DNA of 64,000 nt, taken from positions 220,544-284,543 of the forward strand of contig WJJZ01000010.1 of the NCBI GenBank assembly GCA_014729395.1, in the 5' to 3' direction. The notes under the pieces were generated by a model. That model was not told the origin of the DNA. It did not search any database and saw only the letters and a program-made list of their open reading frames with translations. The translations under genes and the position numbers were made by a program. Within the stretch, counting starts at the first letter, position 1, and every line of letters begins with the position of its first letter. The stretch comes from Candidatus Magasanikiibacteriota bacterium. Its GTDB lineage: Bacteria; Patescibacteriota; Patescibacteriia; Magasanikbacterales; UBA922. Shown here in pieces: positions 7,303-50,560 of the stretch.

Positions 7303-7866
7303 ATGATAGTTTTATATATAATTATTGCGGTGTTGGCGGTAGTTATCTTCTGGGTAATTGCGCTTTACAACGGCTTGATTAAACTACGCAACCGCACCAA
7401 AGAAGCTTGGAGCGATATTGACGTACAACTGAAGCGTCGACATGACTTGATTCCAAATTTGGTGGAAAGTGTAAAAGGTTATATGAAACATGAACGCGAG
7501 CTTCTGGAAAAAATTACCAAATATCGTTCACAGGCAATGAAGGAGCAAAAGGCCGGAGAAACTGAAAAACTCGCCAAAACCGAAGGTATGCTCGGAAACA
7601 TGCTTGGAAAATTACAAATTGCTGTTGAAGCCTACCCGGATCTCAAGGCTAATGAAAACGTAAGTCAGTTAATGGATGAATTAAGCGACACTGAAAATAA
7701 AATTCAGGCTGCGCGCAGATTTTACAACGGTCAAGTCCGAGACTTCAATACAAAAATTGAAAGCTTTCCGAATAATTTAATTGCCGGAATGTTGAAATTT
7801 AGCAAATTTGATTTCTTTGAAGTAGAAGATGCTAAAGAGAGAGAAAATGTAAAAGTAAAATTATAA
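7303..7866 (+). CDS. lemA: LemA family protein
   Basis: 187 aa; N-terminal TM then LIKLRNRTKEAWSDIDVQLKRRHDLIPNLVESVKGY, the LemA signature. Confidence 0.8.
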   Translation: MIVLYIIIAVLAVVIFWVIALYNGLIKLRNRTKEAWSDIDVQLKRRHDLIPNLVESVKGYMKHERELLEKITKYRSQAMKEQKAGETEKLAKTEGMLGNMLGKLQIAVEAYPDLKANENVSQLMDELSDTENKIQAARRFYNGQVRDFNTKIESFPNNLIAGMLKFSKFDFFEVEDAKERENVKVKL

Positions 7867-7943
7867 CAGTTATCAGTTCACGGTTCACAGCTAGCAGGAG
7901 ATACACAAATCTGTGAACTGAGAGCTGTTGGCTGCGAACTGTT

Positions 7944-8828
7944 ATGTATAATCAAATCGACTCCAACAAACGCAAAACCGTAATACTCATTACCATATTC
8001 CTTGTCCTAATCATCGCCCTGGGTTGGTTTATTGGTGTTTACTTGAACTATGGCTATGGTGTCTTTTTGTTTGCCGTAATTTTTTCTATTGGAACTTCCC
8101 TTGTCAGCTATTACAAAGGTGACAAAATTGCCCTTGCCTCAACAAAAGCCAAAGAAATCAAAAAAACAGACAATCCTTATGTTTACAGAATGGTAGAAAA
8201 TCTTTGCATTACTGCCGGTATTCCAACCCCCAAAGTCCATATAATCGACTCTCCTGCTTTGAATGCCTTTGCCACCGGCCGTGATCCGGAACATGCTTCA
8301 ATTGCTCTAACTACCGGAATTATAAAAGCTTTGGAGAATGAAGAACTCGAAGCTGTTATTGCACACGAACTATCACATATAAAAAACTATGACATTCGCT
8401 TAATGACATTGGTGGTCGTTATGGTAGGACTGATTGCCATAATAGCGGATATGTTTTGGCGAATACGTTTTTTTGGCGGTGATAGAAAATCTGATAATAA
8501 AGCCGGTGGTCAGCTGGGAGTAATAATAATGATAATAGGTTTTGCGCTTTTAATCTTATCTCCTATAGTAGCTGAACTAATAAAACTGGCCATTTCCAGA
8601 AAAAGAGAGTATCTGGCCGACGCTTCCGGCGCTCTTTTAACTCGATACCCTGAAGGCTTGGCAAGAGCGCTTGAAAAAATATCAAAATCAAAAACACCCC
8701 TTCAAACTGCTAATAATGCAACTGCACATCTTTTTATTTCCAACCCGTTTAAAGGTAAAAAAATATCGAATTTTTTTTCCACTCATCCTCCAATCGTAGA
8801 CAGGGTAAAAAAACTAAGAGGGATGTAA
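7944..8828 (+). CDS. htpX: HtpX-like M48 zinc metalloprotease
   Basis: HELSHIKNYD HExxH motif, 4 TM segments, typical LemA-HtpX pairing. Confidence 0.8.
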   Translation: MYNQIDSNKRKTVILITIFLVLIIALGWFIGVYLNYGYGVFLFAVIFSIGTSLVSYYKGDKIALASTKAKEIKKTDNPYVYRMVENLCITAGIPTPKVHIIDSPALNAFATGRDPEHASIALTTGIIKALENEELEAVIAHELSHIKNYDIRLMTLVVVMVGLIAIIADMFWRIRFFGGDRKSDNKAGGQLGVIIMIIGFALLILSPIVAELIKLAISRKREYLADASGALLTRYPEGLARALEKISKSKTPLQTANNATAHLFISNPFKGKKISNFFSTHPPIVDRVKKLRGM

Positions 8829-8858
8829 TATACAATATTATTTATTTAATAAAAAATT

Positions 8859-9209
8859 ATGGGAGATACACCTTGGATCCTAATAGCCGTTGCCGTTTTG
8901 ATACTAATTTTGGCGGTAGTGGCTATTTTAATTAATAAAGATAAAAAAAGACCACCTGACTACTATACTTTTTTTATAATAGGTCTGACCTGGATTGCCA
9001 TAGGCCTACCGCTTAAAAATTATGCACTTTGGATAATGGGCCTGGTTTTTACCGCCATTGGCCTCATCAATAAAGACAAATGGAAACAAAACCATAAAAA
9101 ATGGAACCAACTAACAGACAAAGAAAAAAAAGCGAAAATGGTCTTAATAACCATTCTAGGTATATTGGTATTGGCCGGCTTTGTCGCCTATTTAGTAGTG
9201 GCTATATAA
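8859..9209 (+). CDS. Hypothetical membrane protein
   Basis: 116 aa, four hydrophobic helices. Confidence 0.45.
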   Translation: MGDTPWILIAVAVLILILAVVAILINKDKKRPPDYYTFFIIGLTWIAIGLPLKNYALWIMGLVFTAIGLINKDKWKQNHKKWNQLTDKEKKAKMVLITILGILVLAGFVAYLVVAI

Positions 9210-9272: not shown

Positions 9273-10643
9273 TTATGATGTTATTATAGCTTCAATCTCT
9301 TCTTTTTTTTGTCGCATGACATCCGCCTCTTTGGCCTCCAAATTTAATCTCAGCACCGGTTCTGTGTTTGATTTTCTCACACTAAACCAACCCCAATCAA
9401 ACTTTATATAAAGTCCGTCAAGATGGGAAATTTCCTGAGCCTCGCTTTTGTAAGTTTCCTCCAATTTTGCAATCACCCCATCTTTATCCTCAACTTTAAA
9501 ATTAATCTCTCCGGAATGATAATACTTTTTTAATGGCTCAACCATTGTGCTTAAAGTTTTACCTTCACGTGAAAGCATTTGTAAAACCAAAAGTAAAGAC
9601 AGGTCACTGGATTCCAAATTATACAAATCACCATAGTACAAGTGCTGTGAAAGCTCGCTGGCAAAAATAGCTTTATTTTCCTTCATCAATTTTTTAATCA
9701 AAGCATGACCTACCATACACATCTCCGGTTCACCACCGTTCTCTTTCCAGACTTCCGGAATAACCATACTTGATCTTAAATCATAATACATTTTGCCGGA
9801 TCCTTTTTTCTTTAAAATTTCCAATCCCACCAAGGCACCAACAAAAGAAGCCCCGACTACCTCCCCGTTTTCATCCACCAAGCCAATCCTATCGGCGTCA
9901 CCATCCAGGGCGAAACCAAAATCAGCCCCAAACTCTTTTACCTTGTTCTGCAAATCGCGCAGTGTTTCAAGCTTTAGGGGGTTGGCCTCGTGATTGGGAA
10001 AACCGCCGTCCGGTTCCATGTATAAATATTCAACCTCAATCGGTAATTTTTCAATAACCTTGGGCAACACCACCCCGCCCATCCCGTTTCCACCATCCAC
10101 AACCAACTTCATTGGCTTTATCTCTTCCTTATCCACTAAAGAAAATATTTTTTCAATATAATCAGACAGTACATCTTTTTTCATAAGCTGTCCTTTATAA
10201 TCTGACTCATCAAACTCTCCCTTCTGCACCATATCTTTTATATCATCCATACCGGTAGCTCCTCCAAGAGGCAAACCATCTTCAAAAGTAATTTTAAAGC
10301 CATTATATTCAGCCGGATTATGACTGGCCGTGACCATGATTCCGCCGGCATGTTCTTTGTAATGGGCTGACGCAAAATTAAAAACAGGCGTTGATACCAA
10401 ACCCACATCCACCACATCCACACCTTCATCATTGATGCCTCTAATCAATTCTCTTTGAAATCCCAAACTAGAATCCCGCATGTCACGACCGACCACAATT
10501 TGTCTACCGTTGAAATCAAAATCTTTGTTTTTCAAAAAAATAACAAATGACCTGCCCAACCTATAAGCTAATTCCACCGACAATTCTCCTTCTACCAAGC
10601 CCCTTATATCATAGGCCTTAAAAATATGATCTGGAAATTCCAT
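9273..10643 (-). CDS. Phosphoglucomutase/phosphomannomutase family protein
   Basis: Active-site TASHNPAEYNGFK, metal-binding DGDADR, 456 aa. Confidence 0.85.
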   Translation of the reverse strand: MEFPDHIFKAYDIRGLVEGELSVELAYRLGRSFVIFLKNKDFDFNGRQIVVGRDMRDSSLGFQRELIRGINDEGVDVVDVGLVSTPVFNFASAHYKEHAGGIMVTASHNPAEYNGFKITFEDGLPLGGATGMDDIKDMVQKGEFDESDYKGQLMKKDVLSDYIEKIFSLVDKEEIKPMKLVVDGGNGMGGVVLPKVIEKLPIEVEYLYMEPDGGFPNHEANPLKLETLRDLQNKVKEFGADFGFALDGDADRIGLVDENGEVVGASFVGALVGLEILKKKGSGKMYYDLRSSMVIPEVWKENGGEPEMCMVGHALIKKLMKENKAIFASELSQHLYYGDLYNLESSDLSLLLVLQMLSREGKTLSTMVEPLKKYYHSGEINFKVEDKDGVIAKLEETYKSEAQEISHLDGLYIKFDWGWFSVRKSNTEPVLRLNLEAKEADVMRQKKEEIEAIITS

Positions 10644-10785
10644 AAATAATAATTAACAATTAACAATGAACAACTAACAAATTTATTATCGTATACCGGA
10701 AAGCAATAAATTCTTTCGAAAAAATGAAGGTCTTCACGACAAGATTTGTTAATTGCTAATTGTTAGTTGTAAATTGAAAAATACT

Positions 10786-10815
10786 TTGACAAAAGCGACT
10801 TTTACAGTATATAAT
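10786..10815 (+). promoter_or_regulatory. Sigma-70-like promoter upstream of clpC-like gene
   Basis: TTGACA-18 nt-TATAAT; followed by a ~175-nt leader containing direct repeats (AAAAAATTGAAT x2, TCATAGATTCATAG). Confidence 0.45.
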
Positions 10816-10991
10816 ATCCCTATATTTTAGACAAATATACAAAAAAAATTGAATCATAGATTCATAGCGAATTTTGGTATTTTAAAAAATGATATATTAA
10901 AAAAAATTGAATTTATAATTTAATATTACACGAAAGTTGATTAAGCGTTTATCTAGATTGCAAATTCTAGATTCTAAATTACTAAACTATT

Positions 10992-13544
10992 ATGAACCCG
11001 GAGCAATTTCTTGAAAGATTTTCAACACATCTAAAAAATACAATAGCCCGAGCTATCTCAATAGCGGTGTCCATGCAACATACTGAAGTTTCATCTACTC
11101 ATCTTATTTTAGCAATAATTGAAGAAGATGGTTCAGTTGGCGCCGAAATCATTCAGAAATCCGAACCAAAAAAGAAAAAAATTGCTTCTTTCTTACAAAA
11201 CAATCAATCTTTGAAAAATGAAAAAAAGAAAAAAAATTTAAACTCCCAAATCCCTGAACTGGATGATAATGCAAAACAATCCCTGGAAAGAGCCATGTTA
11301 ATCGCCTACAAACTAAAACATAACTATATCGGAACAGAACATTTACTATCTGGATTACTAAATAGTGATGATAAAAATATAAAGCAAATTTTTTCAAAAA
11401 AATATTTAGATAAGAAAGAATTGGAAAGGCAAATCAATACCGCACTTGAAAGTATCAGTAAATTTCCAAAAATTGAAGATGTGGGAGCCGTGATGGATCA
11501 GATACAAGGTATGCCTGATGAAACACCACTTGGAGCTAACCCGATTCAAGGACCCGGTATACCGATGATGCCGATTCCACAGTTGAATAAAAAAAAGACT
11601 GACATTACAAGTTATTATACAACCAACCTAACCAGTACGAAAATACAAAAAAATATTGACCCTGTAGTCGGTCGTGAAAAAGAAATTGAAAGAATAATAA
11701 ACATTTTGGCCAGACGTACAAAAAATAATCCGGTTTTGATCGGAGAACCCGGGGTTGGAAAAACCGCTATTATAGAGGGCTTGGCAAAAAACATACTTAA
11801 AAAAGAAACACCGCAATATCTGCACAAAAAAAAGATCCTATCCCTTGATCTCACTCTTTTAATTTCCGGAACAATATATCGAGGTGAATTTGAATCAAGA
11901 CTAAAACAAATTATAGATACAGTCAGTTCCAATGAAGATATAATCCTGTTTATTGACGAAATTCATAATATAATCGGAACCGGTACCAACCAGGGTACAA
12001 TGGACGCAGCCAACATCTTAAAACCGGCGCTGGCCAGAGGTAATTTGCGTTGCATCGGAGCAACAACAATCGACGAGTACAAAAAATATATCCACTCGGA
12101 CCCGGCTCTGGAAAGACGTTTTCAAGAAATCTTAATCGACGAAACTTCACAAGACGAAACTTTTTCCATAATAAAAGGTATAAAAGATAATTATGAAAAA
12201 TATCATAATACACAAATTACAAATAGCGCAATCCGGGCAGCGGTTGAGATGAGTAGTAAATATATTCATGATAATTTCTTGCCGGATAAAGCAATAGATC
12301 TGATTGACGAGGCATCAGCTTCTGTAAATATAAAAAGAAAAATCAATAGTGCCGAAAAAAAATTTAATGACCTGACGCAAGAGCTTGATGAAATAAAAAA
12401 ACATAAAAATAAAGCCATAACTGAAGAAAAATATTCGACCGCTAAAAAATTAAAGCAGAAAGAAGCGGAAATCAATAAAAAAATTGAAAAAGCAAGACAA
12501 GAAAACACCAAAAAACAAAGTAGAAAAAGAGTAACCGAAAAAGATGTGGCAAACGTGTTATCAAATCGCTTAAAAATAGACAAAAAAATTCTATTATCCA
12601 ATGAATGGGAACAACTAAATAATCTCAAAAAAAGGATGACTGCCAATATTTTTGGCCAAGATGATATTATGGAAAGCATTGTAAAAACCCTGCAAAAATC
12701 ACATTTACGCTCAAAAAAGCATACAGGTGCTTTTGCTTCCATGATCTTTGTAGGACCAAGCGGAGTGGGAAAAACAGAAACCGCAAAAATTCTCGCCCGC
12801 GAACTTTTTCACGATAAAGACGCCCTAATAAAGCTGGATATGAGTGAATTTTCAGAATCACACGGCATATCCAAACTACTGGGCTCACCTGCCGGTTATG
12901 TTGGTTACAATGACCGAAATTTATTTTTGGAAAAAATAACCAAAAAACCTTATTCTGTTGTTTTATTTGATGAGTTTGATAAGGCCCACGCCAGCATTAG
13001 AAGACTTCTTTTGCAAATACTCGACGATGGCTACCTCACAGACAGTATTGGCAAGAAAATTAGTTTTAATCATGCTATAATAATAATTACTACAAATATT
13101 GCTTCCGAGTTATTCAAATCAAGCGGAATCGGTTTTGAAAATATACATAATTTTGCCAACGAAAGAAATCAAATACTTAAATCAAAACTGAAAGAAAAGT
13201 TTGGTACAGAATTAATTGATAGGATGGAAAATATTCATATCTTCAATCCACTCACCAGAAAAGATTTAAAAAAAATCGTGACCAAAAAACTAGATGAGAC
13301 TATTCAAAATGTAGAAAAATCACAAGCTTTAAATATTGTCAGCGAAGATAAAATAATAGATCATCTGATCGGTAATATTTTTTCAGAAAAGCAAGGTGCC
13401 AGACAGATAAAAAAAACTGTAGAAGATATTATTCACAAACTTATAGTTGATTTTTTGAGTAATCGGAAGAATGATGCTAAAAAAAATCCAGATCTTAAGC
13501 TAAAAATTGTTAATGATAAAATCAAATTCATAGAAAATAGATAA
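10992..13544 (+). CDS. clpC: Clp/Hsp100 AAA+ ATPase (ClpC/ClpB family) with two Clp_N repeats, two AAA modules, short coiled-coil M domain
   Basis: GEPGVGKTAI (D1 Walker A), VGPSGVGKTE (D2 Walker A), N-domain repeats, possible ClpP-loop GIGF; 850 aa. Confidence 0.8.
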   Translation: MNPEQFLERFSTHLKNTIARAISIAVSMQHTEVSSTHLILAIIEEDGSVGAEIIQKSEPKKKKIASFLQNNQSLKNEKKKKNLNSQIPELDDNAKQSLERAMLIAYKLKHNYIGTEHLLSGLLNSDDKNIKQIFSKKYLDKKELERQINTALESISKFPKIEDVGAVMDQIQGMPDETPLGANPIQGPGIPMMPIPQLNKKKTDITSYYTTNLTSTKIQKNIDPVVGREKEIERIINILARRTKNNPVLIGEPGVGKTAIIEGLAKNILKKETPQYLHKKKILSLDLTLLISGTIYRGEFESRLKQIIDTVSSNEDIILFIDEIHNIIGTGTNQGTMDAANILKPALARGNLRCIGATTIDEYKKYIHSDPALERRFQEILIDETSQDETFSIIKGIKDNYEKYHNTQITNSAIRAAVEMSSKYIHDNFLPDKAIDLIDEASASVNIKRKINSAEKKFNDLTQELDEIKKHKNKAITEEKYSTAKKLKQKEAEINKKIEKARQENTKKQSRKRVTEKDVANVLSNRLKIDKKILLSNEWEQLNNLKKRMTANIFGQDDIMESIVKTLQKSHLRSKKHTGAFASMIFVGPSGVGKTETAKILARELFHDKDALIKLDMSEFSESHGISKLLGSPAGYVGYNDRNLFLEKITKKPYSVVLFDEFDKAHASIRRLLLQILDDGYLTDSIGKKISFNHAIIIITTNIASELFKSSGIGFENIHNFANERNQILKSKLKEKFGTELIDRMENIHIFNPLTRKDLKKIVTKKLDETIQNVEKSQALNIVSEDKIIDHLIGNIFSEKQGARQIKKTVEDIIHKLIVDFLSNRKNDAKKNPDLKLKIVNDKIKFIENR

Positions 13545-13573: not shown

Positions 13574-14665
13574 ATGGCAGAAACCAAGGATGATAAAATT
13601 GCCGTTGACTTGAAAAAGGCTCTAAGAAAAGATTCCTTGCTTGAAAATGCCAGTGAAGAAGATCTGAAAAAAATAAGCAATGAAATAGGAGAAATAATAA
13701 ATGAAAACGAAAGCATACAAAATAATGGCATTGATCCCGACGAAATTGCCTCACCCTCGCCTGCTTATGTTGCGCCGGAAAAACCGATTTCAAGACCGAC
13801 AACACAAAAAAAACCTGCCGTACCAGAGGAAGAACTTCCAAAAAATAATCAAAATTTGGAAAATGAAAATATTACAGAAAAATCGCCTACACAAAAACCG
13901 ATACCGGAAAAAGATCAAAAACCTTTGAGAGAAAATATTAGCAACCAACCCGGTGAACTTAGCAATCCTGCCGATGCTGAAGAATCAGTACAAGAGAGTG
14001 AAGACTATGAACCTTTTTCAGAAGAACCCTTTCAGGGAGATAGCACGGCAGCCGGACAAACCGCAGAAAAAGACACCGGTACACAGCCAGATAAAAAATC
14101 TGAAACGCAAGCCGATCCTGAATCCAAAGAGCAAACTCAAGCAGCCGGGTTAAAAAGCCAGAGACAAAGATCAAGATATTTAAACAAACTACAAGATAAA
14201 AAAGATAAAGTAAAAACCAAACAGAAAGAAGAACCCAAGGCCGGAACGATCAACGGTTTCTATAGTTATTTGTTAATTTTTTTTATAAGGGATGTTTTAT
14301 TGATTATACTTTGCTTCATCCCGATTGTAGGAGCGGTTGTGGCAATGCTTACCGTACACCCCTTAGATATACTGGTAATTATCTTTTTCTTAAAAAGCCA
14401 AGATAAGGCCAGTTTTTATCCTTTTCTGGCAAAAATAGTGGCCAGCGGATCAATTTACACGCTTATTTTCTTTTTAGTTTCTCATTCTCTATTTTTAATC
14501 TATTTGGCAGTTTTATATAAAGTAGAAGGGCTTAAAGCAAAAGTTACCGGAAAAAAAACAGTGGCAAAAAAACTTCTTGGCTCAAAGGAAGATAGGAAAA
14601 AAAATTCTATTGCCAATAAAATGGCCGCAGCCAATGCCGGCGGAGGAGCCAAACCGAACGCATAA
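13574..14665 (+). CDS. Hypothetical protein: ~200-aa acidic low-complexity N-terminal region followed by polytopic membrane domain
   Basis: 363 aa; E/D/P/Q-rich N-half, 4 hydrophobic helices in C-half. Confidence 0.5.
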   Translation: MAETKDDKIAVDLKKALRKDSLLENASEEDLKKISNEIGEIINENESIQNNGIDPDEIASPSPAYVAPEKPISRPTTQKKPAVPEEELPKNNQNLENENITEKSPTQKPIPEKDQKPLRENISNQPGELSNPADAEESVQESEDYEPFSEEPFQGDSTAAGQTAEKDTGTQPDKKSETQADPESKEQTQAAGLKSQRQRSRYLNKLQDKKDKVKTKQKEEPKAGTINGFYSYLLIFFIRDVLLIILCFIPIVGAVVAMLTVHPLDILVIIFFLKSQDKASFYPFLAKIVASGSIYTLIFFLVSHSLFLIYLAVLYKVEGLKAKVTGKKTVAKKLLGSKEDRKKNSIANKMAAANAGGGAKPNA

Positions 14666-14682
14666 TATACTAATAATAAATT

Positions 14683-15903
14683 ATGGATAAAAAAAAGTTG
14701 GGACTTATAATCATTTTTATAATCATTACCCTAATCCTTGGTTACACAATGTACAGATTATTTTTTTATAGAGCTGCACAACCCCAACCCGAAGAACCGG
14801 GAGTAGAATTACCCGGGGGTCCGGGTTTCCCACAGGCAGGAGAGGGTGAAGTAACAGGACCGGGAGCGGAAGAACCCGGAGGATTACCTACCGCGGGTGT
14901 GATTCCGGAAATTGAAGGCCCTTCCATACCCGAAGAAGAACCGACTGTCTCGAGAGTAATTGACAGCATCATCGACAACTCCAGCGCCGGAACAGATGGA
15001 AATGTGAATTTTTACAGCAGACAAGATGGTAAGTTTTATCGATATGATACGGAAACAGGCATCGAAGAATTAAGTGACCAGGTTTTTTATAACGTCTCAA
15101 ATGTTACCTGGTCTCCGACCAAAAATGAAGGAATAATTGAATATCCGGACGGGTCAAATATTTATTATAATTTTGATACAAAAAAACAAGTGACACTACC
15201 AAAACACTGGCAAGAATTTGATTTTTCCGAAAACGGAAATCAAATAGTAAGCAAGAGTATGGGATTATCCCCGGAGAACAGATGGCTGATAACATCTGAT
15301 CCGGAAGGCAACGGTGTAAGAACAATAGAGCCACTTGGTGAAAATGCCAGTGAGGTAATTGTTGACTGGTCCCCAAACAGACAAGTTGTGGCGTTATCAA
15401 CTACCGGAGAGCCACTTGGTGGTTATCGCCAAGAAGTTTTATTTGTTGGTCTGAATGGTGAAAATTTTCCTTCAACCATAGTTGAAGGACAAGGTTTACA
15501 AACCGAATGGTCAAAAGACGGAAGTAAATTATTATATAGTGTTTACAGCCCCAGAAGCGAATACAAACCCGAATTGTGGGTGGTAAATGCACAGGGAAAT
15601 GATATAGGCACCGGTAGGCAATCACTAAATCTAAACACCTGGGCAGAAAAATGCACTTTCCAGGATGATAGATTTGTTTACTGCGGAGTACCAACCGAAC
15701 TGCCGGTCGGCTCCGGATTTAATGCCGATTCGGTTGATAATGTAAATGATTATCTATATAAAATCGACACTCAAACCGGCCTGAGAACGCAAATTGAATT
15801 GGAAGGATATCATGTAATTGATGATATTTTTATGAGTAAAGATGGAAGCCAATTATTTTTCACAGACAAAACAACTGACGGTTTGTTCTCGGTTGATATA
15901 TAA
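14683..15903 (+). CDS. Membrane-anchored PD40/TolB-like beta-propeller repeat protein with Pro/Gly/Glu-rich linker
   Basis: N-terminal TM; PEEPGVELPGGPGFPQAGEGEV linker; repeated WSPxxxx / DGSxLxY blocks typical of PD40 repeats. Confidence 0.55.
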   Translation: MDKKKLGLIIIFIIITLILGYTMYRLFFYRAAQPQPEEPGVELPGGPGFPQAGEGEVTGPGAEEPGGLPTAGVIPEIEGPSIPEEEPTVSRVIDSIIDNSSAGTDGNVNFYSRQDGKFYRYDTETGIEELSDQVFYNVSNVTWSPTKNEGIIEYPDGSNIYYNFDTKKQVTLPKHWQEFDFSENGNQIVSKSMGLSPENRWLITSDPEGNGVRTIEPLGENASEVIVDWSPNRQVVALSTTGEPLGGYRQEVLFVGLNGENFPSTIVEGQGLQTEWSKDGSKLLYSVYSPRSEYKPELWVVNAQGNDIGTGRQSLNLNTWAEKCTFQDDRFVYCGVPTELPVGSGFNADSVDNVNDYLYKIDTQTGLRTQIELEGYHVIDDIFMSKDGSQLFFTDKTTDGLFSVDI

Positions 15904-15921
15904 ACTCCATATCCTAAAAAT

Positions 15922-16560
15922 ATGCCAAGCACAAAGAAATTACTAATTATTTTTATCCCAGCTATTTTTGTGTCCGCTTTTGCCTTATTTATTAGAGTCA
16001 TGCAGTACTCATCAATAACAAATTCATCAGGTCAAGATGAAATTCAAAGTCAATCACTCTTACCTATCCACCCCGAGGATCCCATTATTGGACACAAAAA
16101 ATCCCCGATTACAATAATAGTTTTTGGAGACTTTGCCTGCGAGGCTTGTCGTGTGCAAGATAATATTTTAGAAAAACTAATAAAAAAATATCCTGAAAAA
16201 ATTAAAGTCATATGGAAGGGACTTCCTGTGGCCAGATTTCCTTATAAAAGCGAACCCGCACACAGATATGCTTACTGTGCCAATAAACAAGAAAAGTTTG
16301 ATCAATTTGCTAAATTAGCTTTTACAAATTCGGACAATTTATCACCAACCGCAATTGGCAGAATTGTTCAAGAAATAAAAATCAATCAAGAAGAAATGCT
16401 AAACTGTTTGAACAATGATGAAGTTGATCAATATATAGTCTTTAACAAACAATTAGCCACCTCTTTGGGAATTCAAGCGGTACCGGCAATATTTATCAAT
16501 GACAAACAAATAAAAACACCGAACAGTCTCGATGAATGGGAATCTATACTTCAACTATAA
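15922..16560 (+). CDS. DsbA-like thiol:disulfide oxidoreductase (thioredoxin fold, CxxC)
   Basis: N-terminal TM/signal; FGDFACEACR CxxC active site; 212 aa. Confidence 0.7.
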   Translation: MPSTKKLLIIFIPAIFVSAFALFIRVMQYSSITNSSGQDEIQSQSLLPIHPEDPIIGHKKSPITIIVFGDFACEACRVQDNILEKLIKKYPEKIKVIWKGLPVARFPYKSEPAHRYAYCANKQEKFDQFAKLAFTNSDNLSPTAIGRIVQEIKINQEEMLNCLNNDEVDQYIVFNKQLATSLGIQAVPAIFINDKQIKTPNSLDEWESILQL

Positions 16561-16561
16561 T

Positions 16562-18319
16562 ATGAAAAAAATAATATTTAAATCGGTATTTATTTTTGTT
16601 AGTTTTTTTATTTTTGCTTTGCTCAACCTTACACCGGTATTGGCCCAAAACGATATAGAAGATTTACAGGAAAATATCCGAGTCCCGGAAACGCAAATTA
16701 ACATACCCGGTTTGGAATTCAGTGATGCAGATTTAGAAGAATTACAAACTAAAGATATAGGTCCGTTTGGTAGATTGAATACTTATTATTATTTTCCCTA
16801 TTTCGGTGAATACTTGGCTGCTGTATATAAATATACCATTGGGGCAATCGCTATTATAGCTGTAATTGTCTTAATTATTTCCGGACTGCAATGGGCATCT
16901 TCCGCCGGCAATGATGAAATGATAAATTCAGCAAAAAAGAGAATTATTGGGGCGGTTATGGGATTAGTGATAGCGGTATCTTCTTATACGATTTTATATA
17001 TTATTAACCCCGATTTAGTCCAATTTAACAATATAAAGGTTTTAACCGTTGTCGGTGAAGATGTAGATCTGGAAAACGCTGTTTATGATGGCAAACAGGT
17101 GGCTAGCGAATTTATCACATATAATGCCGATCCCAGCCGAGCTCTTTCGGACAGTCAGTATGATGAAATTTTTAAATCTTTTGCCAATTGTATTGATGCG
17201 GACTGGCGTTTACTAAAAGTAATGGCTTATAAAGAATCCCGATTGCGTAAAGATATAAAAAATAAAGAAGGTTTTATTGGACTGTTTCAAACTAAACCTA
17301 ATTTTTGTAGAAGTGCTCTAAGAAATTACCCACAGTGGGCGGGAAAATGCAATGACTTAACGGATCCGTATGTGAACACCGCGGTTGGTGCCATGATGCT
17401 TAAAACCGGTTTAGCTAAACTAAATAAATGCCCTTCATTAAGTACTGTTGATCAAGGTATTTTAATTTATTTAAATCACAACAGTGGAGGCGGGGCCGTT
17501 AATTGGATGATTAAAAACGGTGCTTGCGGCGGAGGCAATTTGATTGAAGAAACAATAATCGCTTTTTGGGATCAGCACAAAAATGGTAGATACAAAGGAC
17601 AAGAGAAAGGTCAAAAAAGATATAAATTTGCTGTTGGTGTATCTAAACTTTTTTTAGATCAAGGGGTTACAAATTTTAAAGACACCTCGCAAAATGGTGA
17701 TTTTAGATGCCCTTTAACCGAATACACATCTGACGTGGCCAGTAGCTTAAAAAATGTTTCTATAAATTGTGACGACGCTTTTAACGGACGCAAAGTATTA
17801 GCAATTGGTGACTCAAATATTGCTAACAGCAGCTCTTTTGTAGAAAAAATGGATACCGCTTGTCCAAATGTAGAGTTTGAGAAAAAGGCTTATAGTGGAG
17901 AAGATGCCGGCGATTTATGGAAAAAAATTGAAGATGGAACAATTGACTTAAGCAACTATAATGATGTTATAATTTGGATCGGTGTAAATGACCTAGATAA
18001 TGCAACTCGAGACTTGGAAAAAATATACAGAGAAGCCAGAGATAAAAATTTACGTGTTATAGCCATAACCCTAACCCCATGGAAAGACTATGGATCCTGG
18101 ACAGAACAGCGTCAACTAAAAACCGACGAAATTAATACTTGGATTAAAAACGATGGTGGCGGTTTCTTATCCGGACAAAAAATAATTGATGCATATTACT
18201 TATTGGAGGATCCAAAAAACCCTGACTACTTAAATCCTCTATACCAACGTGACCTGATTCATATTAATAATGCGGGGCACGAACTTTTGGCCAAGCTAAT
18301 CGCCGTAAAGGCATTTTGA
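16562..18319 (+). CDS. Secreted Cys-rich multidomain cell-wall hydrolase: signal peptide + conserved two-TM pilin-like module + lytic transglycosylase (SLT) domain + SGNH/GDSL hydrolase domain
   Basis: Start refined to MKKIIFKSV (signal peptide). SLT motifs AYKESRL...GLFQ...IYLNHNSGGG; SGNH blocks AIGDSN, GVNDL, DLIHINNAGH; >10 Cys. Confidence 0.75.
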   Translation: MKKIIFKSVFIFVSFFIFALLNLTPVLAQNDIEDLQENIRVPETQINIPGLEFSDADLEELQTKDIGPFGRLNTYYYFPYFGEYLAAVYKYTIGAIAIIAVIVLIISGLQWASSAGNDEMINSAKKRIIGAVMGLVIAVSSYTILYIINPDLVQFNNIKVLTVVGEDVDLENAVYDGKQVASEFITYNADPSRALSDSQYDEIFKSFANCIDADWRLLKVMAYKESRLRKDIKNKEGFIGLFQTKPNFCRSALRNYPQWAGKCNDLTDPYVNTAVGAMMLKTGLAKLNKCPSLSTVDQGILIYLNHNSGGGAVNWMIKNGACGGGNLIEETIIAFWDQHKNGRYKGQEKGQKRYKFAVGVSKLFLDQGVTNFKDTSQNGDFRCPLTEYTSDVASSLKNVSINCDDAFNGRKVLAIGDSNIANSSSFVEKMDTACPNVEFEKKAYSGEDAGDLWKKIEDGTIDLSNYNDVIIWIGVNDLDNATRDLEKIYREARDKNLRVIAITLTPWKDYGSWTEQRQLKTDEINTWIKNDGGGFLSGQKIIDAYYLLEDPKNPDYLNPLYQRDLIHINNAGHELLAKLIAVKAF

Positions 18320-18329
18320 TAAACATAAA

Positions 18330-20315
18330 ATGATTTCTGAAAATAAAATAATAATTTTGCTTAAAAAAAAGAATTTTTTTTTATTCTTATCGATCATTTT
18401 TATATTGCTATTGTTTCCAGCGACAAGCTTTGCACAAGCCGACACCGATAAGTTGCAGGAGAATATTCGTGCCCCGGAACCGACTGTGAATATACCGGGG
18501 CTGGAATTCAGTGATGCTGATTTGGAAGAATTACAAACTCAAGATGTCGGTCCTTTTGGGAAACTGAATACTTATTATTATTTCCCGTATTTAGGTGAAT
18601 ATCTAGCTGCTGTTTACCGGTATGCTGTAGGGGCAGCGGCTATAATAGCTGTAATTATCTTAATAATATCCGGTTTGCAGTGGGCATCTTCGGCTGGTAA
18701 TGATGATACAATAAATTCGGCTAAAAAAAGAATAATTGGTGCTGTGATAGGTCTAATAATCTCAGTTGGTTCATACTCAATTCTTTATATAATTAATCCA
18801 AACCTGGTTGAATTTAAAAATTTAAAAGTGTTGAAAGTAGAAGGACAAGAAATAAATGCGGAAGGTCCTGTGGATGAAGAACAAACCCTTACTTTGACCG
18901 AACCAAGCGATGCAAATATAAGCTCTATCCAGGGCAGGACACTACGGGTTTCCAGCCCGAATAGTTTCTGTTTTCCGCTTTTGGAAGATGGTTATAGATA
19001 CAATACACAAAATTGGGGGCAAAGAAGAAAAAGAAAAATTGACACAGATTACAAGCGTTGTCATTCGGGAGTTGATTTATTGACAGAAGGTAAAGAAGGT
19101 AAAGGAACTGTAATCTCTATGACCAATGGCGAAGTGTTTTTTATAACAAGAGGTTTTTATACTTGCTATGATGGCAAAACAACCAAAACAAATCCGGGCG
19201 AGGGAGAAAAAGTTGGGGCCATTTATATTTATGATTCTTATAACGATCTGACCTATATATATGGAGAGGTAAACGCCTCTTCGATAAAAGTAAAAAAAGG
19301 TGACCGGATTAGAAGAGGACAAATTCTGGGTACAGCTTCCAAATGCAACATGCTTCACTTAGAAATATACAAAGGAAAAGGCAGAAGAACGGGAGATAAA
19401 ATGTCTGTTGAAGGCTACACTAAAAAGAAAAGCGGCTGGTATATATTCGAAGACTTGAAAGATTCATTGGACCTACCTGATTCGATTGCAATAGCCGGCC
19501 GAAGCGGATGTGCTCAACCGCCATATGTAAATATTTTGGATGAAGTAAACTCGGCCCTTCTTGATCCAAGACAATTTCTCTCAGACATAAAAGGTAATTA
19601 TTGTGACCCCAATACATATTACCCTCCCGCCGGTGATAACAATATAGAAAATATTATAAATACTTTTGCCTTATGCGAAGGAATAAAACCCGCTGTTTTA
19701 CGTCAAATTGCCGAGTATGAAAGCCAATTAAGTCCAACCGCAACCAGAGGTTCGAACTATGTTGGTCTGTTTCAAGAATCCATAGACTATTGTAAGATTG
19801 GATTATACAAAGCAGGCTATACAATAGGGCCAAATAATGATACCTTAAAATCGGAATATATAAATCTTGGTTATAATTGCAGTTATGATTCGAAAGAAAA
19901 ACTCAGTGGCCGATTTGACCCTGAAACCAACACAGCTGCCGCTGCAGCCAATCTATATTCATATTTACAAGATATAAAAAGAAAATGTTCAAATATAACA
20001 GCCTATAATGCGGTTACATTATTATATGTTGGTCACAACAACGGTAGCGGAGTTATGCAGCATGTTTTAAACAATAGTGCCGGTAACTGCAGTGACAGTA
20101 ATATCAGAAAATATGTAAGAGACTTTTATATAGAGCGAGGCGGTGAGTTTCGTGGTGTGAGCACAAGTGAAGGAGAGCAAAAATATATCAATGGCAAGGA
20201 AAACATAGCAAACCCTCTTTATGGAAACAATCAAAATGCAGGTATAGAAGATTTGGTAATAGAAAAAAACTTGAGTAACTGCCCGATACAGACAAAACAA
20301 AGAGTTAACCAATAA
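18330..20315 (+). CDS. Secreted Cys-rich multidomain cell-wall hydrolase: signal peptide + same two-TM pilin-like module + M23/LytM-like peptidase domain + SLT domain
   Basis: N-terminal 130 aa ~80% identical to preceding ORF; M23 HxxxD (CHSGVD) with second motif LHLEI (possibly degenerate HxH); SLT motifs EYESQL...GLFQ...LYVGHNNGSG. Confidence 0.75.
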   Translation: MISENKIIILLKKKNFFLFLSIIFILLLFPATSFAQADTDKLQENIRAPEPTVNIPGLEFSDADLEELQTQDVGPFGKLNTYYYFPYLGEYLAAVYRYAVGAAAIIAVIILIISGLQWASSAGNDDTINSAKKRIIGAVIGLIISVGSYSILYIINPNLVEFKNLKVLKVEGQEINAEGPVDEEQTLTLTEPSDANISSIQGRTLRVSSPNSFCFPLLEDGYRYNTQNWGQRRKRKIDTDYKRCHSGVDLLTEGKEGKGTVISMTNGEVFFITRGFYTCYDGKTTKTNPGEGEKVGAIYIYDSYNDLTYIYGEVNASSIKVKKGDRIRRGQILGTASKCNMLHLEIYKGKGRRTGDKMSVEGYTKKKSGWYIFEDLKDSLDLPDSIAIAGRSGCAQPPYVNILDEVNSALLDPRQFLSDIKGNYCDPNTYYPPAGDNNIENIINTFALCEGIKPAVLRQIAEYESQLSPTATRGSNYVGLFQESIDYCKIGLYKAGYTIGPNNDTLKSEYINLGYNCSYDSKEKLSGRFDPETNTAAAAANLYSYLQDIKRKCSNITAYNAVTLLYVGHNNGSGVMQHVLNNSAGNCSDSNIRKYVRDFYIERGGEFRGVSTSEGEQKYINGKENIANPLYGNNQNAGIEDLVIEKNLSNCPIQTKQRVNQ

Positions 20316-21654: not shown

Positions 21655-21682
21655 AAGACCCGCAAAAAGCAGGTCAAGCTGG
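21655..21682. terminator. Bidirectional rho-independent terminator
   Basis: AAAAAAAGACCCGCAAAAAGCAGGTC; on minus strand GACCTGC-TTTTT-GCGGGTC followed by T7; serves radA and the convergent small gene. Confidence 0.55.
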
Positions 21683-39298: not shown

Positions 39299-39380
39299 GC
39301 CCGAGTGGCGGAATTGGTAGACGCGCACGACTCAAAATCGTGTTCCTTCGGGAGTGAGAGTTCGATTCTCTCCTCGGGCA
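39299..39380 (+). tRNA. tRNA-Leu (anticodon CAA)
   Basis: GCCCGAGTGGCGGAATTGGTAGACGCGCACGACTCAAAATCGTGTTCCTTCGGGAGTGAGAGTTCGATTCTCTCCTCGGGCA; long variable arm, anticodon loop CTCAAAA; D-arm nearly identical to E. coli tRNA-Leu. Confidence 0.85.
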
Positions 39381-39388
39381 CAATAATT

Positions 39389-40357
39389 ATGAAACTTTAC
39401 TTCGATATAATTATTATCACCGGAATATTTGCAACTGCCGTACCGGCAATTTTTTTGCTTTATCACCGTTCATTTTCTGAAAATTCACTGGAAAATAAGT
39501 TTAAAAACACATCTTTGATTTTGTCTCTTGTGTTGTTTATTGGTAGCATGGTATTGATCTATGGTAGTTTTTTTGAACCAAAACTTTTGATAACCAACGA
39601 ACAGGAAATTAATATGGAGGGTATAAATAATGAAATAGAAATTATTTTAATAGCTGACCCCCAAGTGGGACCCTATAAACAAGAAAAATATCTTGAAAAA
39701 ATTATCACCAGAATCATGGAATTAAAGCCTGATATCATTCTTATTGCGGGTGATATTGTAAATAATGGTATTCCAAACAAAGACGAAACCGTTTATTTAG
39801 ATCCATTAAAAAAATTGCCACTTATTGCCCCAACTTACGCTGTACACGGCAATCACGAGTATGGTATTGGATCTGAAAACCCGGAAGACAAAAAAGAATC
39901 TTTATCACCTGATGTAAGCCAAACAGTTAAAATTGCAATAGAAAATTTGAGTATAAAATATTTAGAGAATGATTTGGAATTGATTGAAGTAAATTCAGAA
40001 AAATTTTATCTTTTTGGTGGAGATTCTTATTGGGCTCGAAAACTTGATTTCTCTACCTTAAACAATCGCGAAGAGGATATCCCTACTATCGCCTTGATTC
40101 ATAACCAAGCGGCAATCTACGAAGCAACAAAACATAATGTTGACCTGGTATTAAGCGGCCATACCCATGGAGGACAAATTAGATTTCCTTTTGTTGGTCC
40201 ATTGGGCAGAGTTGATGGCAGCACTCCAAATGAATTATATCAAGGTCTACACCAATTCGGCAGCACAACCCTCTTTGTATCCAGTGGAGTCGGCGAAACC
40301 GGTACTCGAGCCAGACTGTTCAACCCTCCGGAAATAGTATTGATAAAAATAAACTAA
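39389..40357 (+). CDS. Membrane-anchored calcineurin-like metallophosphoesterase
   Basis: Motifs GDIVNNG, GNHEY, GHTHGGQ; start refined to MKLYFDI (track ORF start overlaps tRNA-Leu). Confidence 0.75.
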   Translation: MKLYFDIIIITGIFATAVPAIFLLYHRSFSENSLENKFKNTSLILSLVLFIGSMVLIYGSFFEPKLLITNEQEINMEGINNEIEIILIADPQVGPYKQEKYLEKIITRIMELKPDIILIAGDIVNNGIPNKDETVYLDPLKKLPLIAPTYAVHGNHEYGIGSENPEDKKESLSPDVSQTVKIAIENLSIKYLENDLELIEVNSEKFYLFGGDSYWARKLDFSTLNNREEDIPTIALIHNQAAIYEATKHNVDLVLSGHTHGGQIRFPFVGPLGRVDGSTPNELYQGLHQFGSTTLFVSSGVGETGTRARLFNPPEIVLIKIN

Positions 40358-40955: not shown

Positions 40956-42029
40956 TTACGTGTCTAGTTCGGTCGAACTTGCAATTTCAATATTATCATT
41001 CTCCAATCTCTCTCCCGGCCATTTATAACTGGAAAATGTCCATTGGGCGATATCTCTGGCTTCTATAAATCTTGCTTCATGGTCAACGGCCCCCAAAACT
41101 ACCACATTTATAGTATGGCCCTTTTCATCAAATACTTGCATGGTAAAATTATAACCTGATGCGGGAATATAACCCGTCTTTCCTCCGGTAAACCCGCTAA
41201 AATTACTGCTTACCCAACCCAATAAGAGCCAATTCGTGCTCCACATATGATGATTTTTATTTCTTTTTGTAGAATACAAACTGAGTTCTTTTTTATTCAA
41301 AGCTTCTTTTATCTCATCATACTTCAAACTTTCATCCAGCAATATTGAAATATCCGAAGCAGTGGAAATATTTGTTGCATTCAATCCGGTAGGATCTGTA
41401 AAATAACTGTCTGTCATACCCAATTCCAAAGCTTTTTGATTCATTTTTTCAATAAACACTTTTTCATCCAAATCAAGACTGTTTACAAGACTCAAAATAG
41501 CTTTATTGGAAGATGCAACCAAACCGGCCTGCCAAAGCTCTTTTATACTATAAACATCACCTTTATAAACATGAGTGTCCAAAGAATCCGCCCCTATGAC
41601 CGTAGTGGTAGCTGACCAATCTAAACCCTGATCCAAAAGTACAATCGCCGTCATTAATTTTGTAATACTGGCAATAGGTCTTTGTATATATTCATTTTTT
41701 CTAAAAAAAACAAAACCTGTGTCAGAATCTTTGACAATCATGCTATCGGAACTAAATCGTTCGGGATTAATACTTTCTCCGATAAATTCAGGCAATTGCG
41801 GTTCTACATTTTTCGGGGGGCTGATCAAAACATCACCTCCCGCAGAAACTTCTTCAGTCTCCACCACTTTGGCAACCAAAAGAGAATCGGTCGGTAATTT
41901 TTTTTTCAAATCTAGAGAAAGATCGCTATAGTTAAAGAAAACAAACAAAAAAATTGTAACAAAAATCAACAACAAGCCGGCTGCATTCCTCCATTGATTT
42001 GCTAAATCTTTTTCTTTTAAAAAATTCAT
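40956..42029 (-). CDS. dacA: D-alanyl-D-alanine carboxypeptidase (S11, PBP5/6-like)
   Basis: SxxK (ASITKLM), SxN (VASSNKA), KTG (GGKTGY) motifs; N-terminal TM. Confidence 0.8.
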   Translation of the reverse strand: MNFLKEKDLANQWRNAAGLLLIFVTIFLFVFFNYSDLSLDLKKKLPTDSLLVAKVVETEEVSAGGDVLISPPKNVEPQLPEFIGESINPERFSSDSMIVKDSDTGFVFFRKNEYIQRPIASITKLMTAIVLLDQGLDWSATTTVIGADSLDTHVYKGDVYSIKELWQAGLVASSNKAILSLVNSLDLDEKVFIEKMNQKALELGMTDSYFTDPTGLNATNISTASDISILLDESLKYDEIKEALNKKELSLYSTKRNKNHHMWSTNWLLLGWVSSNFSGFTGGKTGYIPASGYNFTMQVFDEKGHTINVVVLGAVDHEARFIEARDIAQWTFSSYKWPGERLENDNIEIASSTELDT

Positions 42030-49519: not shown

Positions 49520-50560
49520 CTACCTAAGATACTTGGCTACATTCTTATTATGTTCCTCCAAGGTCTTGGAATAAATAACTTCACCGGTATCAAGGGTGGT
49601 TAAAAAATACCAAAAATCATTTTCCCTGGGGTATATAGCTGCCATAATCGATTCCAAACTCGGAGTTCCTATCGGACCCGGGGGTAATCCCGGATATTTA
49701 TATGTATTCCAATATGAATCAATATCCCGATCAGATTGCATTGTAAAAACAGAACCATCCTTTCCTATAATATAGTGAACTGTTGAATCTGCCTGCAAAG
49801 CCCAATCCATATCTAATCGTCTCCAAAAAATATCAGCAATTATTCTCTTGTCTTCCTCAGTCCTGGCTTCATGCTCTAAAATACTGGCCATGGTTAATAT
49901 CTCATGAATATTTCTGTCCTTTTCTTCAATATCACTATACATTTGCTCTGTTATTTCCCGGTCTCTTTGACTAATCAATTTTTCAACCACTTCTGACAAT
50001 TCCGCATCAGCATATATTCTATATGTATTCGGAGATAGGTACCCATCATAAGCAATATAATCAGGTTTTGATTGCATAATTTTATAACCCATAAAATCTT
50101 TAGTGGGTAAATCATCATGATCACCCAGCCTATAATCTGTTGCCGAGACACCAAGATAGTCTAATACTTCTTCGTATGAGGCTATATCTTCCTTGACAAA
50201 ATAATCAGCAATATCACGTATTGTCCAGCCGGGTATTATGGTTATAGTCTTCTCTATTTTTGATTTTGGATCATTTAAAGATTCCGCCACATTCACCATT
50301 GTAACAGGTGATTCTACTTCAAACTGACCTTGCTTCACTTTTCTATCAATCTTCCGCCATATCAAATACTTTTCAAAAATCCAAGCATTACTGATAATTC
50401 CCTCCTCTTCCAATCTGGTAGATAATTCGGATACTCTTTCATTCGGCTTGACTACAAAATTTACAGACTGTTCAGAGGTATTTTGCAGAAATAGCATCCA
50501 GTATAATAAAAAAAAGGCTGATAGAACCAATAAAATTAAAAATATTAATAATCTTTTCAT
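49520..50560 (-). CDS. mltG: Endolytic murein transglycosylase MltG (YceG-like)
   Basis: N-terminal TM, YceG fold motifs (PGLPPGPIGTPS), 346 aa. Confidence 0.8.
   Translation of the reverse strand: MKRLLIFLILLVLSAFFLLYWMLFLQNTSEQSVNFVVKPNERVSELSTRLEEEGIISNAWIFEKYLIWRKIDRKVKQGQFEVESPVTMVNVAESLNDPKSKIEKTITIIPGWTIRDIADYFVKEDIASYEEVLDYLGVSATDYRLGDHDDLPTKDFMGYKIMQSKPDYIAYDGYLSPNTYRIYADAELSEVVEKLISQRDREITEQMYSDIEEKDRNIHEILTMASILEHEARTEEDKRIIADIFWRRLDMDWALQADSTVHYIIGKDGSVFTMQSDRDIDSYWNTYKYPGLPPGPIGTPSLESIMAAIYPRENDFWYFLTTLDTGEVIYSKTLEEHNKNVAKYLR

Follow-up and report, generated by a model that had tools for sequence, protein, structure and literature searches.

The subject of this study is a pair of tandem genes in a 64,000-nucleotide stretch of DNA (hereafter the window), which is a chromosomal segment of a metagenome-assembled genome of Candidatus Magasanikbacteria (ultra-small Patescibacteria/Candidate Phyla Radiation; 295,853-bp contig, GC about 36%). 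The two genes, here called hydrolase A and hydrolase B, appear from their sequences to encode membrane-tethered peptidoglycan hydrolases. Their products belong to a large family of Patescibacterial proteins that join interchangeable wall-lytic domains to one conserved carrier module. The two genes lie directly behind the genes of a beta-propeller protein and a DsbA-like enzyme, and the four genes with their recognisable domains are the following (aa, amino acids).

14683-15903, plus strand: membrane-anchored beta-propeller protein, 406 aa
15922-16560, plus strand: membrane-anchored DsbA-like thiol:disulfide oxidoreductase, 212 aa
16562-18319, plus strand: hydrolase A, 585 aa, from an ATG one base past the DsbA stop codon; predicted Sec signal peptide (cleavage between VLA and Q), carrier module, SLT domain, SGNH/GDSL esterase domain
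16667-17056, plus strand: carrier module of A, residues 36-165
17198-17515, plus strand: SLT (lytic transglycosylase/lysozyme-like) domain of A
17840-18286, plus strand: SGNH/GDSL esterase domain of A
18330-20315, plus strand: hydrolase B, 661 aa; predicted Sec signal peptide (cleavage between SFA and Q), carrier module, divergent M23/LytM-like domain, SLT domain
18456-18845, plus strand: carrier module of B, residues 43-172
19062-19376, plus strand: divergent M23/LytM-like domain of B
19692-20129, plus strand: SLT domain of B, approximate bounds

The N-termini of the two hydrolases are clearly related to each other. BLASTP aligns 168 aa of them at 69% identity (E=1e-66); over the 130-aa carrier module identity reaches 80%, in agreement with a preliminary description of this locus that had pointed to adjacent genes sharing about 130 N-terminal residues at some 80% identity. 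No third copy of the module was found within the window. The two modules are 74.9% identical in DNA and show 51 synonymous codon differences in 130 codons; since 80% protein identity has been kept despite these differences, they are old duplicates under purifying selection. A recent duplication in the window was considered and rejected on the same count.

The module of A consists, in order, of IPGLEFS, GEYLAAVYKY, a first transmembrane (TM) helix, a loop with SGLQW..S.GN, AKKRI, a second TM helix and SYTILYIINPDLVQF, while the family consensus is PxPxIxIPGLxFS ... PFLGEYIxAVY(K/R)Y, TM1, (S/G)GxQW..S.G, AKKRI, TM2 and SYTILYxINPxLVxFxxLK. A hydropathy scan places the signal peptide at residues 9-27 and the TM helices at 91-109 and 128-146 in A, and at 7-25, 98-116 and 135-153, respectively, in B. 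The helices are joined by a short basic loop, read from the sequence as AKKRI, which is the topology of the T4SS_pilin family PF18895 (T4SS, type IV secretion system). The module of A scores 26.9 bits against this family, for which the gathering threshold is 26.6, and that of B falls just under it with 24.8 bits and a weak TrbC match; NCBIfam gives weak matches to the Mbov_0395 pilin-like conjugal transfer family, with NF045849 at 7e-6 for the A module. PF18895 is also matched at E<1e-3 by 60 of 82 related carriers (best 7.4e-10), so that the earlier characterisation of the N-terminus as a signal peptide followed by two pilin-like TM helices holds. An AlphaFold2 model of the module (pLDDT 85.4) forms a long helical hairpin, with helices at 46-77 and 83-113, and short strands before TM1 and after TM2 that, in the model, may pack together on the outer face. 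Fold searches with this hairpin were non-specific and did not specifically retrieve conjugative pilins; the classical VirB2/TrbC family PF04956 stayed below threshold, and solved conjugative pilins gave no specific fold match. The relationship between the module and pilins is therefore drawn from sequence profiles only. A typical pilin has roughly 100 aa, and neither A and B nor their relatives, which range from 250 to 970 aa, are stand-alone small subunits of the kind that PF18895 describes.

Downstream of the module the two proteins carry different enzymes. The SLT domain of A (PF01464, 1.2e-8, 35.0 bits against a cutoff of 21.3) shows the motifs AYKES, GLFQ and NHNSGG on reading of the sequence, and its second domain (PF13472 Lipase_GDSL_2, 4e-8, 34.4 bits against a cutoff of 32.9) has intact SGNH blocks I (GDS), III (GVND) and V (DLIH), matches the SGNH hydrolase of PDB 7tog (E=0.0025) and is a predicted esterase of the SGNH/GDSL family whose substrate may be O-acetyl-peptidoglycan or a lipid. 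The SLT domain of B is matched by PF01464 in two stretches (1e-8, 35.2 bits) and has the motifs EYES, GLFQ and GHNNGSG, although the SLT regions of A and B are only 24% identical. These assignments, an SLT with an SGNH domain in the first gene and an SLT in the second, are those given previously. Like PrgK-type hydrolases, both proteins combine a membrane anchor with an extracytoplasmic glycan-cleaving domain; in A and B this is the SLT domain, which keeps the E-S and GLFQ motifs. NCBI lists both under generic names, A as a 'transglycosylase SLT domain-containing protein' and B as a 'peptidoglycan DD-metalloendopeptidase family protein'. Only two full-length relatives of B were found, with 53% and 40% identity. 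A sequence search of the PDB returned nothing for protein B on its own and only weak SGNH and MltF matches for A.

The remaining domain of B is more difficult to classify. PF01551 matches it at 8e-6 with 26.4 bits, under the cutoff of 28.7, and a profile of the domain finds the PDB M23 chains 3nyy, 6yj1, 2gu1, 5j1l and LytM at E=0.003-0.3. The HxxxD motif is kept as CHSGVD and so is the last His, but YGE, which aligns with the 'YGH' of 6yj1, stands in place of Y-x-H with its catalytic His, and MLHLE (M-L-H) in place of HxH. These substitutions, together with CH-x-G-x-D, are invariant in an alignment of seven subfamily members. Thus, three zinc ligands appear to be retained and two catalytic histidines replaced, and, judging from these comparisons, this domain of B is a divergent member of the M23 fold rather than a canonical active M23. 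The M23/LytM-like call made earlier stands as to fold and non-canonical motif; the score lies below the cutoff, and the substitutions do not allow the domain to be called 'inactive'. The members of this subfamily also share an invariant Cys directly before each His motif (C-H-x-G-x-D and C-x-M-L-H-x-E), and the position of these residues hints at a disulfide, or else at a changed metal site, by the active centre.

The two upstream partners are as characteristic of the locus as the hydrolases themselves. The DsbA-like protein matches Thioredoxin_4 (1e-22, 81.5 bits) and DSBA (3e-12, 47.1 bits) in Pfam, has its CxxC motif as CEAC at residues 73-76 and a TM anchor at 6-24, and so has the features of a DsbA-like enzyme; its gene ends a single nucleotide before hydrolase A, in keeping with the tiny gaps given in the preliminary description. 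The 406-aa propeller protein has no Pfam match at E<0.1. Its AlphaFold2 model (37 sequences, pLDDT 85.1) contains a TM helix at 3-27, a disordered linker of about 47 residues rich in Pro, Gly and Glu at 38-84, and an all-beta domain at 89-405, with which Foldseek retrieves from the PDB 3c5m/3pe7, tricorn 1k32 and WD40 proteins at E of about 1e-10, folds that we take to be mostly seven-bladed beta-propellers. A membrane-anchored propeller fold was therefore correctly recognised before, whereas PD40 itself is seen only in weak PD40/TolB-type matches (PF07676, PF26549 or PF26550) in a few homologues. The search returned 1,502 homologues of the propeller protein, and the 119 listed are 49-66% identical to it over essentially the full length; by sequence comparison its conservation far exceeds that of the hydrolases. 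Protein A contains 8 Cys and protein B 12, so that the more than ten claimed for both apply to B but not to A. In the family as a whole, payload regions, by which we mean the enzymatic parts outside the module, have a median of 3.56 Cys per 100 aa, compared with 0.46-0.66 in ClpB, phosphoglucomutase (PGM) and RecG, and the number is even in 76%. This richness in Cys fits a functional connection between the payloads and the DsbA-like enzyme encoded beside them.

A profile of the module was searched against 1.84 billion cluster representatives and gave 69,590 matches at E<=1e-3, 17,152 at E<=1e-10 and 872 at E<=1e-30. The widest set presumably includes ordinary pilin-like hairpins; among the 150 best of the 872 clusters, which were listed, most match the whole module in one stretch in proteins of 350-900 aa. 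At least 872 protein clusters thus share the full-length module. When species-representative genomes were scanned, 119 stretches were confirmed; the 80 loci kept are mostly titled Magasanik-, Falkow- or Uhrbacteria or 'Patescibacteria group'. Many loci among L003-L082 with accessions beginning CAY or CAZ are titled 'uncultured Gammaproteobacteria bacterium' and yet show full synteny; these titles look like mislabelling or placeholders.

Homologues of A have in common a module of about 115-130 aa, while the flanks differ wholly among members, with 13-560 aa on the N-terminal and about 200-490 aa on the C-terminal side and enzymes before the module, behind it or both. Pfam searches of 82 carriers found VanY in 13, Lipase_GDSL_2 in 10, SLT in 8, Amidase_2 and Peptidase_M15_4 in 7 each, Peptidase_M15 in 6, Peptidase_C39_2 in 5, M23 in 3 and Exo_endo_phos in 2, besides GH18, NlpC/P60, CHAP, Metallophos and others in one carrier each. 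In essence, the payloads cover the catalytic range of autolysins and endolysins. Even paralogues of one locus mostly have unrelated payloads, a local alignment of at least 80 aa being found in only 10 of 51 pairs. Concerted evolution of the paralogous modules was rejected as a general explanation, since their median identity is 60.3% within and 57.5% between genomes and the within-genome value is the higher one in only 21 of the 51 pairs. In locus L077, the module genes at 7607-9040 and 9788-11161 have modules 100% identical over 78 aa and unrelated payloads, which looks like a payload swap or gene conversion of recent date and sets them apart from the old duplicates of the window. Some proteins carry pilin-like hairpins in tandem, 3-17 copies each: P0041 (1147 aa) has 11, P0073 (1775 aa) has 17, and P0031 has four, followed by a lysozyme-like C-terminus.

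To describe the surroundings of the module genes, open reading frames (ORFs) were called in all loci and searched with the window proteins; 62 loci had enough upstream sequence. In 58 of these a DsbA-like gene precedes the module genes (directly adjacent in 49), in 51 a propeller gene does, and in 49 both do. Module genes number one in 47 loci, two in 27, three in 4 and four in 2, and the usual order is PGM (minus strand), clpB, a variable slot gene, propeller, DsbA, module genes, radA and recG (minus strand). The conservation expected of this system in related genomes therefore applies to the DsbA and propeller genes, but not to the gene pair, whose number and payload vary. The conserved unit is the carrier module with its propeller-DsbA context, not a pair of hydrolases.

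In the window this block is set between housekeeping genes, and the flanking features on its own strand are as follows.

10786-10815, plus strand: sigma-70-type consensus TTGACA-18-TATAAT, 12/12 match, about 180 nt 5' of clpB
10992-13544, plus strand: clpB
13574-14665, plus strand: slot gene, 363 aa, with an acidic low-complexity N-terminal part and about three C-terminal TM helices
20320-21651, plus strand: radA

All intergenic gaps from clpB to radA measure 1-29 nt, including 18 nt between propeller and DsbA genes, 1 nt between DsbA and A, 10 nt between A and B and 4 nt between B and radA. A scan of the window found no strong plus-strand terminator-like site ahead of a hairpin at 21657-21675, 3' of radA. 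The perfect consensus upstream of clpB is a candidate promoter of a clpB-to-radA transcription unit, and since no strong terminator-like site follows until after radA, we infer that an operon is plausible. The slot gene ends 17 nt ahead of the propeller gene on the same strand. It was tried as a conserved component and rejected, because a homologue was found in 1 of 46 loci although related genomes fill the slot; its membership in the system is uncertain.

Additional features of the window that bear on the role of the hydrolases are two genes for other wall enzymes and, at the far end, a short group of T4SS genes.

40956-42029: dacA-like gene
49520-50560: mltG
59779-60489, minus strand: comF-like gene (Pribosyltran match)
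60555-61124, minus strand: 189-aa bitopic protein, putative VirB8-like
61137-63023, minus strand: P-loop part of virB4 (Pfam P-loop_TraG, 2e-26)
63064-63456, minus strand: inserted 23S-rRNA-IVP gene (Pfam, 1e-21)
63496-63993, minus strand: N-part of virB4, running past the window end

Between recG/orf167 and comF/virB4 lie about 33.5 kb of housekeeping genes (26272-59796), including lytR, der, dprA, a Mur ligase, topA, relA, parAB, dacA, aspS and mltG. The virB4 gene is split into two ORFs, with the IVP gene between them here, and the two parts abut directly in L062, L073 and L077. In the same region, the GTG start of a Metallophos gene ORF (39305-40357, plus strand) overlaps a tRNA-Leu(CAA) at 39299-39381; because the GTG at 39305 falls within the tRNA, the true start of this gene must lie further 3'.

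Comparison with related genomes brings the T4SS genes closer to the hydrolases. The comF, VirB8-like and virB4 genes are near the hydrolase block in 7 of the 27 loci with enough sequence. In six of them (L044, L058, L062, L064, L066 and L073) the T4SS genes directly follow radA, recG and orf167, 4-6 kb from the block, the sequence of L064 and L066 stopping before virB4. In the seventh, L077, they directly precede the propeller gene in a run on one strand that comprises a gene read by eye as PrgI/VirB3-like, virB4-N, virB4-C, the VirB8-like gene, the propeller gene, a module with a lysozyme-like payload, a TM protein in the DsbA position and a module with an M15/VanY-like payload, neighbouring genes overlapping or standing 3-61 bp apart. 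A search of the window and of the 82 loci (10 kb on either side) found no small hairpin protein standing alone: none of 126 hairpin matches is below 150 aa, and three are below 250 aa, at least two of them truncated where the locus sequence stops. According to PMC12102498, Patescibacterial T4SSs are MPF-FATA-like, their VirB2-like genes are detected via PF18895 and PF04956, the T4SS loci of class ABY1 commonly hold comF, recG and radA, and VirB8 homologues are almost confined to ABY1. The 189-aa bitopic protein beside virB4 is a candidate interaction partner of the hydrolases. The anchored T4SS hydrolase PrgK, to which these proteins had been likened, proves an apt comparison, with its TM anchor and its degenerate LytM, SLT and CHAP domains (PMC11323569). 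In other genomes the block adjoins virB4 or continues it on the same strand.

Taken together, the analysis gives an even chance to the reading that we favour, that A and B are PrgK/VirB1-like wall hydrolases of a Patescibacterial (ABY1, monoderm, MPF-FATA-like) T4SS, tethered by a pilin-derived hairpin and oxidatively folded with the help of the adjacent DsbA. This role is favoured because PrgK is the closest characterised analogue and B repeats its order of anchor, LytM-like and SLT domains. The conserved carrier locus is probably tied to a secretion machine used on hosts. By cutting peptidoglycan locally, at the cell surface or in the contact zone, the hydrolases would open a way through the wall for the secretion apparatus or for its substrates. 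Both proteins would be exported by Sec and cleaved by signal peptidase after VLA or SFA, and the hairpin would then insert with both ends outside and its K/R-rich AKKRI loop in the cytoplasm, as the positive-inside rule predicts. The membrane-anchored DsbA-like enzyme would form disulfides in the Cys-rich extracytoplasmic payloads. O-acetylation at MurNAc C6 blocks lytic transglycosylases, as is known in connection with Ape-type esterases, so the fusion of SGNH and SLT domains in A makes mechanistic sense: the esterase may remove the blocking O-acetyl groups, and the SLT domain may then cleave the glycan. The M23 variant of B could be an atypical endopeptidase or a PrgK-like regulatory LytM domain paired with the SLT. 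Finally, the pilin-like hairpin may dock the enzymes to membrane components of the T4SS and confine lysis, with the propeller as a possible scaffold or regulator. What had been proposed for this locus is thus borne out in part, in its pilin-like carrier, its PrgK-like architecture and its linkage to DsbA and propeller genes, whereas attack on the host wall rather than the cell's own, and a part in attachment, are conjectural.

Several observations weigh against a T4SS role. The hydrolases of the window are about 41 kb from virB4, amid the housekeeping genes clpB, radA and recG, and in most of the other loci among the 27, recG/orf167 is followed by lytR/der, as it is here. The pilin profile scores are near threshold and the fold searches non-specific, and the variety of payloads, with VanY-type, C39-like and phosphoesterase domains, exceeds that of known VirB1-like enzymes. 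The role is built on sequence, models and gene context, in which activity, localisation and interaction are predicted. Furthermore, tblastn against 72,556 plasmids detected no sequence similarity to plasmid-borne PrgK/TraG/CwlT-type hydrolases: the module and the enzymatic part of B had no match, and the enzymatic part of A had generic SGNH matches only. PADLOC gave no match, PHROGs only marginal matches, and viral contigs no relatives. Since none of these searches returned a relevant match, an origin of the genes in defence, as phage lysins or from mobile elements is unsupported.

A rather unlikely alternative is that A and B are housekeeping autolysins, in which the hairpin is a plain anchor recruited once from a pilin gene, the enzymes serve growth, septum splitting or turnover of the cell's own wall, DsbA is a folding helper and the proximity to T4SS genes is incidental. 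The chromosomal locus is vertically conserved between clpB and radA/recG and probably co-transcribed, at least one copy is kept in every genome examined, there are no adjacent immunity-like genes, and most of the 27 loci have no T4SS genes next to the block; a tether of about 40 residues past TM2 would also suit action on the own wall. However, the payload type varies among related genomes, and even genomes with a single copy have different enzyme classes, a variation unexpected for one fixed housekeeping step, which weakens this explanation. Dedicated housekeeping enzymes, MltG and DacA, are encoded elsewhere in the window, as had been pointed out before. The carrier is also conserved beyond what a plain anchor needs, with 80% identity despite saturated synonymous sites and conserved extracytoplasmic motifs, and in L077 the genes stand behind virB4, on its strand and with minimal spacing.

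It is unlikely, too, that A and B are modular VirB2-type pilins, whose hairpin would be extracted from the membrane and polymerised by the T4SS, probably as a minor or tip subunit, so that lytic enzymes on the pilus breach the host wall. The geometry of conjugative pili has been established with the F and T pili, and the N-out/C-out topology predicted here would put the payloads on the side that is external in such pili. The PF18895 and NF045849 profile matches, the polymorphic payloads on a constant carrier and the L077 fusions, which lie within a virB4 gene run with no small pilins nearby, would all agree with this idea. Further agreement comes from the essential pilin array of Saccharibacteria (PMC10633639) and from modular type IV pilins as a precedent (PMC8179133). 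In many members, however, the hairpin sits between bulky domains, the N-flank measuring up to 560 aa, and such proteins are hard to fit into a VirB2-type filament; no stand-alone major pilin that could form the shaft turned up in the 10-kb surroundings of the 82 loci, the fold searches are not specific for conjugative pilins, and no pilus has been demonstrated for this class. If true, these would be the first 'modular T4SS pilins', with interchangeable glycan-cleaving, peptide-cleaving, amidase and esterase payloads that drill the host wall and a payload repertoire that tracks host wall chemistry.

Polymorphic antibacterial toxins, in which a conserved delivery module carries variable wall-degrading domains as in T4SS X-Tfe, T6SS Tae/Tge or T7SS LXG proteins (T6SS and T7SS, type VI and type VII secretion systems), are a very improbable explanation, for although a constant module bears highly variable lytic payloads in one to four tandem genes per locus and 41 of the 51 paralogue pairs lack any payload alignment of at least 80 aa, there are no immunity-like ORFs between or after A and B, where genes abut by 4-10 nt, PADLOC has no match and PHROG matches are marginal, the two-TM hairpin predicts retention in the membrane rather than release, and the locus is syntenic and off mobile elements, with plasmid and viral-contig searches free of relatives save the generic SGNH matches of A.

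Much of bacterial diversity belongs to the Patescibacteria, whose members live attached to other microbes. The only species among them that is genetically tractable cannot lead this attached life without the T4SS and its pilins; for Southlakia, the T4SS and a pilin array are essential for epibiotic growth (PMC10633639, PMC12857230). The locus described here is a concrete, widespread and testable component, a pilin-like carrier fused to polymorphic wall-lytic enzymes, and it suggests how the T4SS of a monoderm epibiont could pass one or two cell walls. Its payloads are ready candidates for zymography on host and self sacculi. Counts of 'VirB2-like pilins' in class ABY1 probably take in these enzyme fusions. 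A limited search of literature text found no description of pilin-hydrolase fusions; within the reach of that search, the systematic fusion of a T4SS_pilin-type hairpin to polymorphic lytic enzymes, the conserved propeller-DsbA partnership and the T4SS linkage in class ABY1 appear to be new.

Among known systems, the T4SS X-Tfe and T6SS Tae/Tge effectors resemble the present family in joining a constant targeting module to interchangeable peptidoglycan-degrading domains, but A and B are without adjacent immunity genes, are predicted to be retained in the membrane and belong to a core chromosomal locus. Modular type IV pilins such as PilB of Streptococcus sanguinis likewise consist of a small filament-subunit module with a grafted functional module and are widespread and architecturally diverse (PMC8179133). 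They are an unrelated pilin class, have a class III signal peptide and form a type IV filament, unlike the Sec-type signal peptide and VirB2-like hairpin found here, and display on a filament has been demonstrated for PilB but would be hypothetical for A and B. The VirB2/TrbC and PF18895 pilins share with A and B a signal peptide, two hydrophobic helices with a short basic loop and a profile score near the gathering threshold, and they occur in the same phylum, where VirB2-like pilin arrays are essential (PMC10633639, PMC12102498). The A/B family differs from them in its length of 350-970 aa, in the enzymatic domains that follow the hairpin, and often precede it too, and in the extra motifs IPGLxFS, GEYIxAVYRY and SYTILYxINPxLVxF outside the Pfam model, and polymerisation is predicted at most.

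The closest systems are PrgK, TraG of pIP501 and CwlT of ICEBs1, which like A and B are membrane-anchored extracytoplasmic multi-domain peptidoglycan hydrolases of monoderm T4SSs. PrgK of pCF10 consists of a TM anchor followed by degenerate LytM, SLT and CHAP domains, of which the SLT works as a muramidase; transfer depends on PrgK, which binds the VirB8-like PrgL (PMC11323569). Unlike the single TM segment of PrgK, the anchor of A and B is a signal peptide with a pilin-like two-TM hairpin and conserved flanking motifs. The payloads of their family are polymorphic across genomes, neither A nor B has a CHAP domain, the genes are chromosomal and here 41 kb from virB4, and similarity to the plasmid-borne homologues of the PrgK group is not detectable in sequence. 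The M23 domain of B keeps HxxxD and one His, whereas the LytM domain of PrgK is without both motifs. Despite these differences, protein B follows the order of PrgK (PMC11323569), with an anchor, a non-canonical LytM/M23 domain and an SLT domain, and the L077 genes stand beside virB4 and a VirB8-like gene, just as prgK does.

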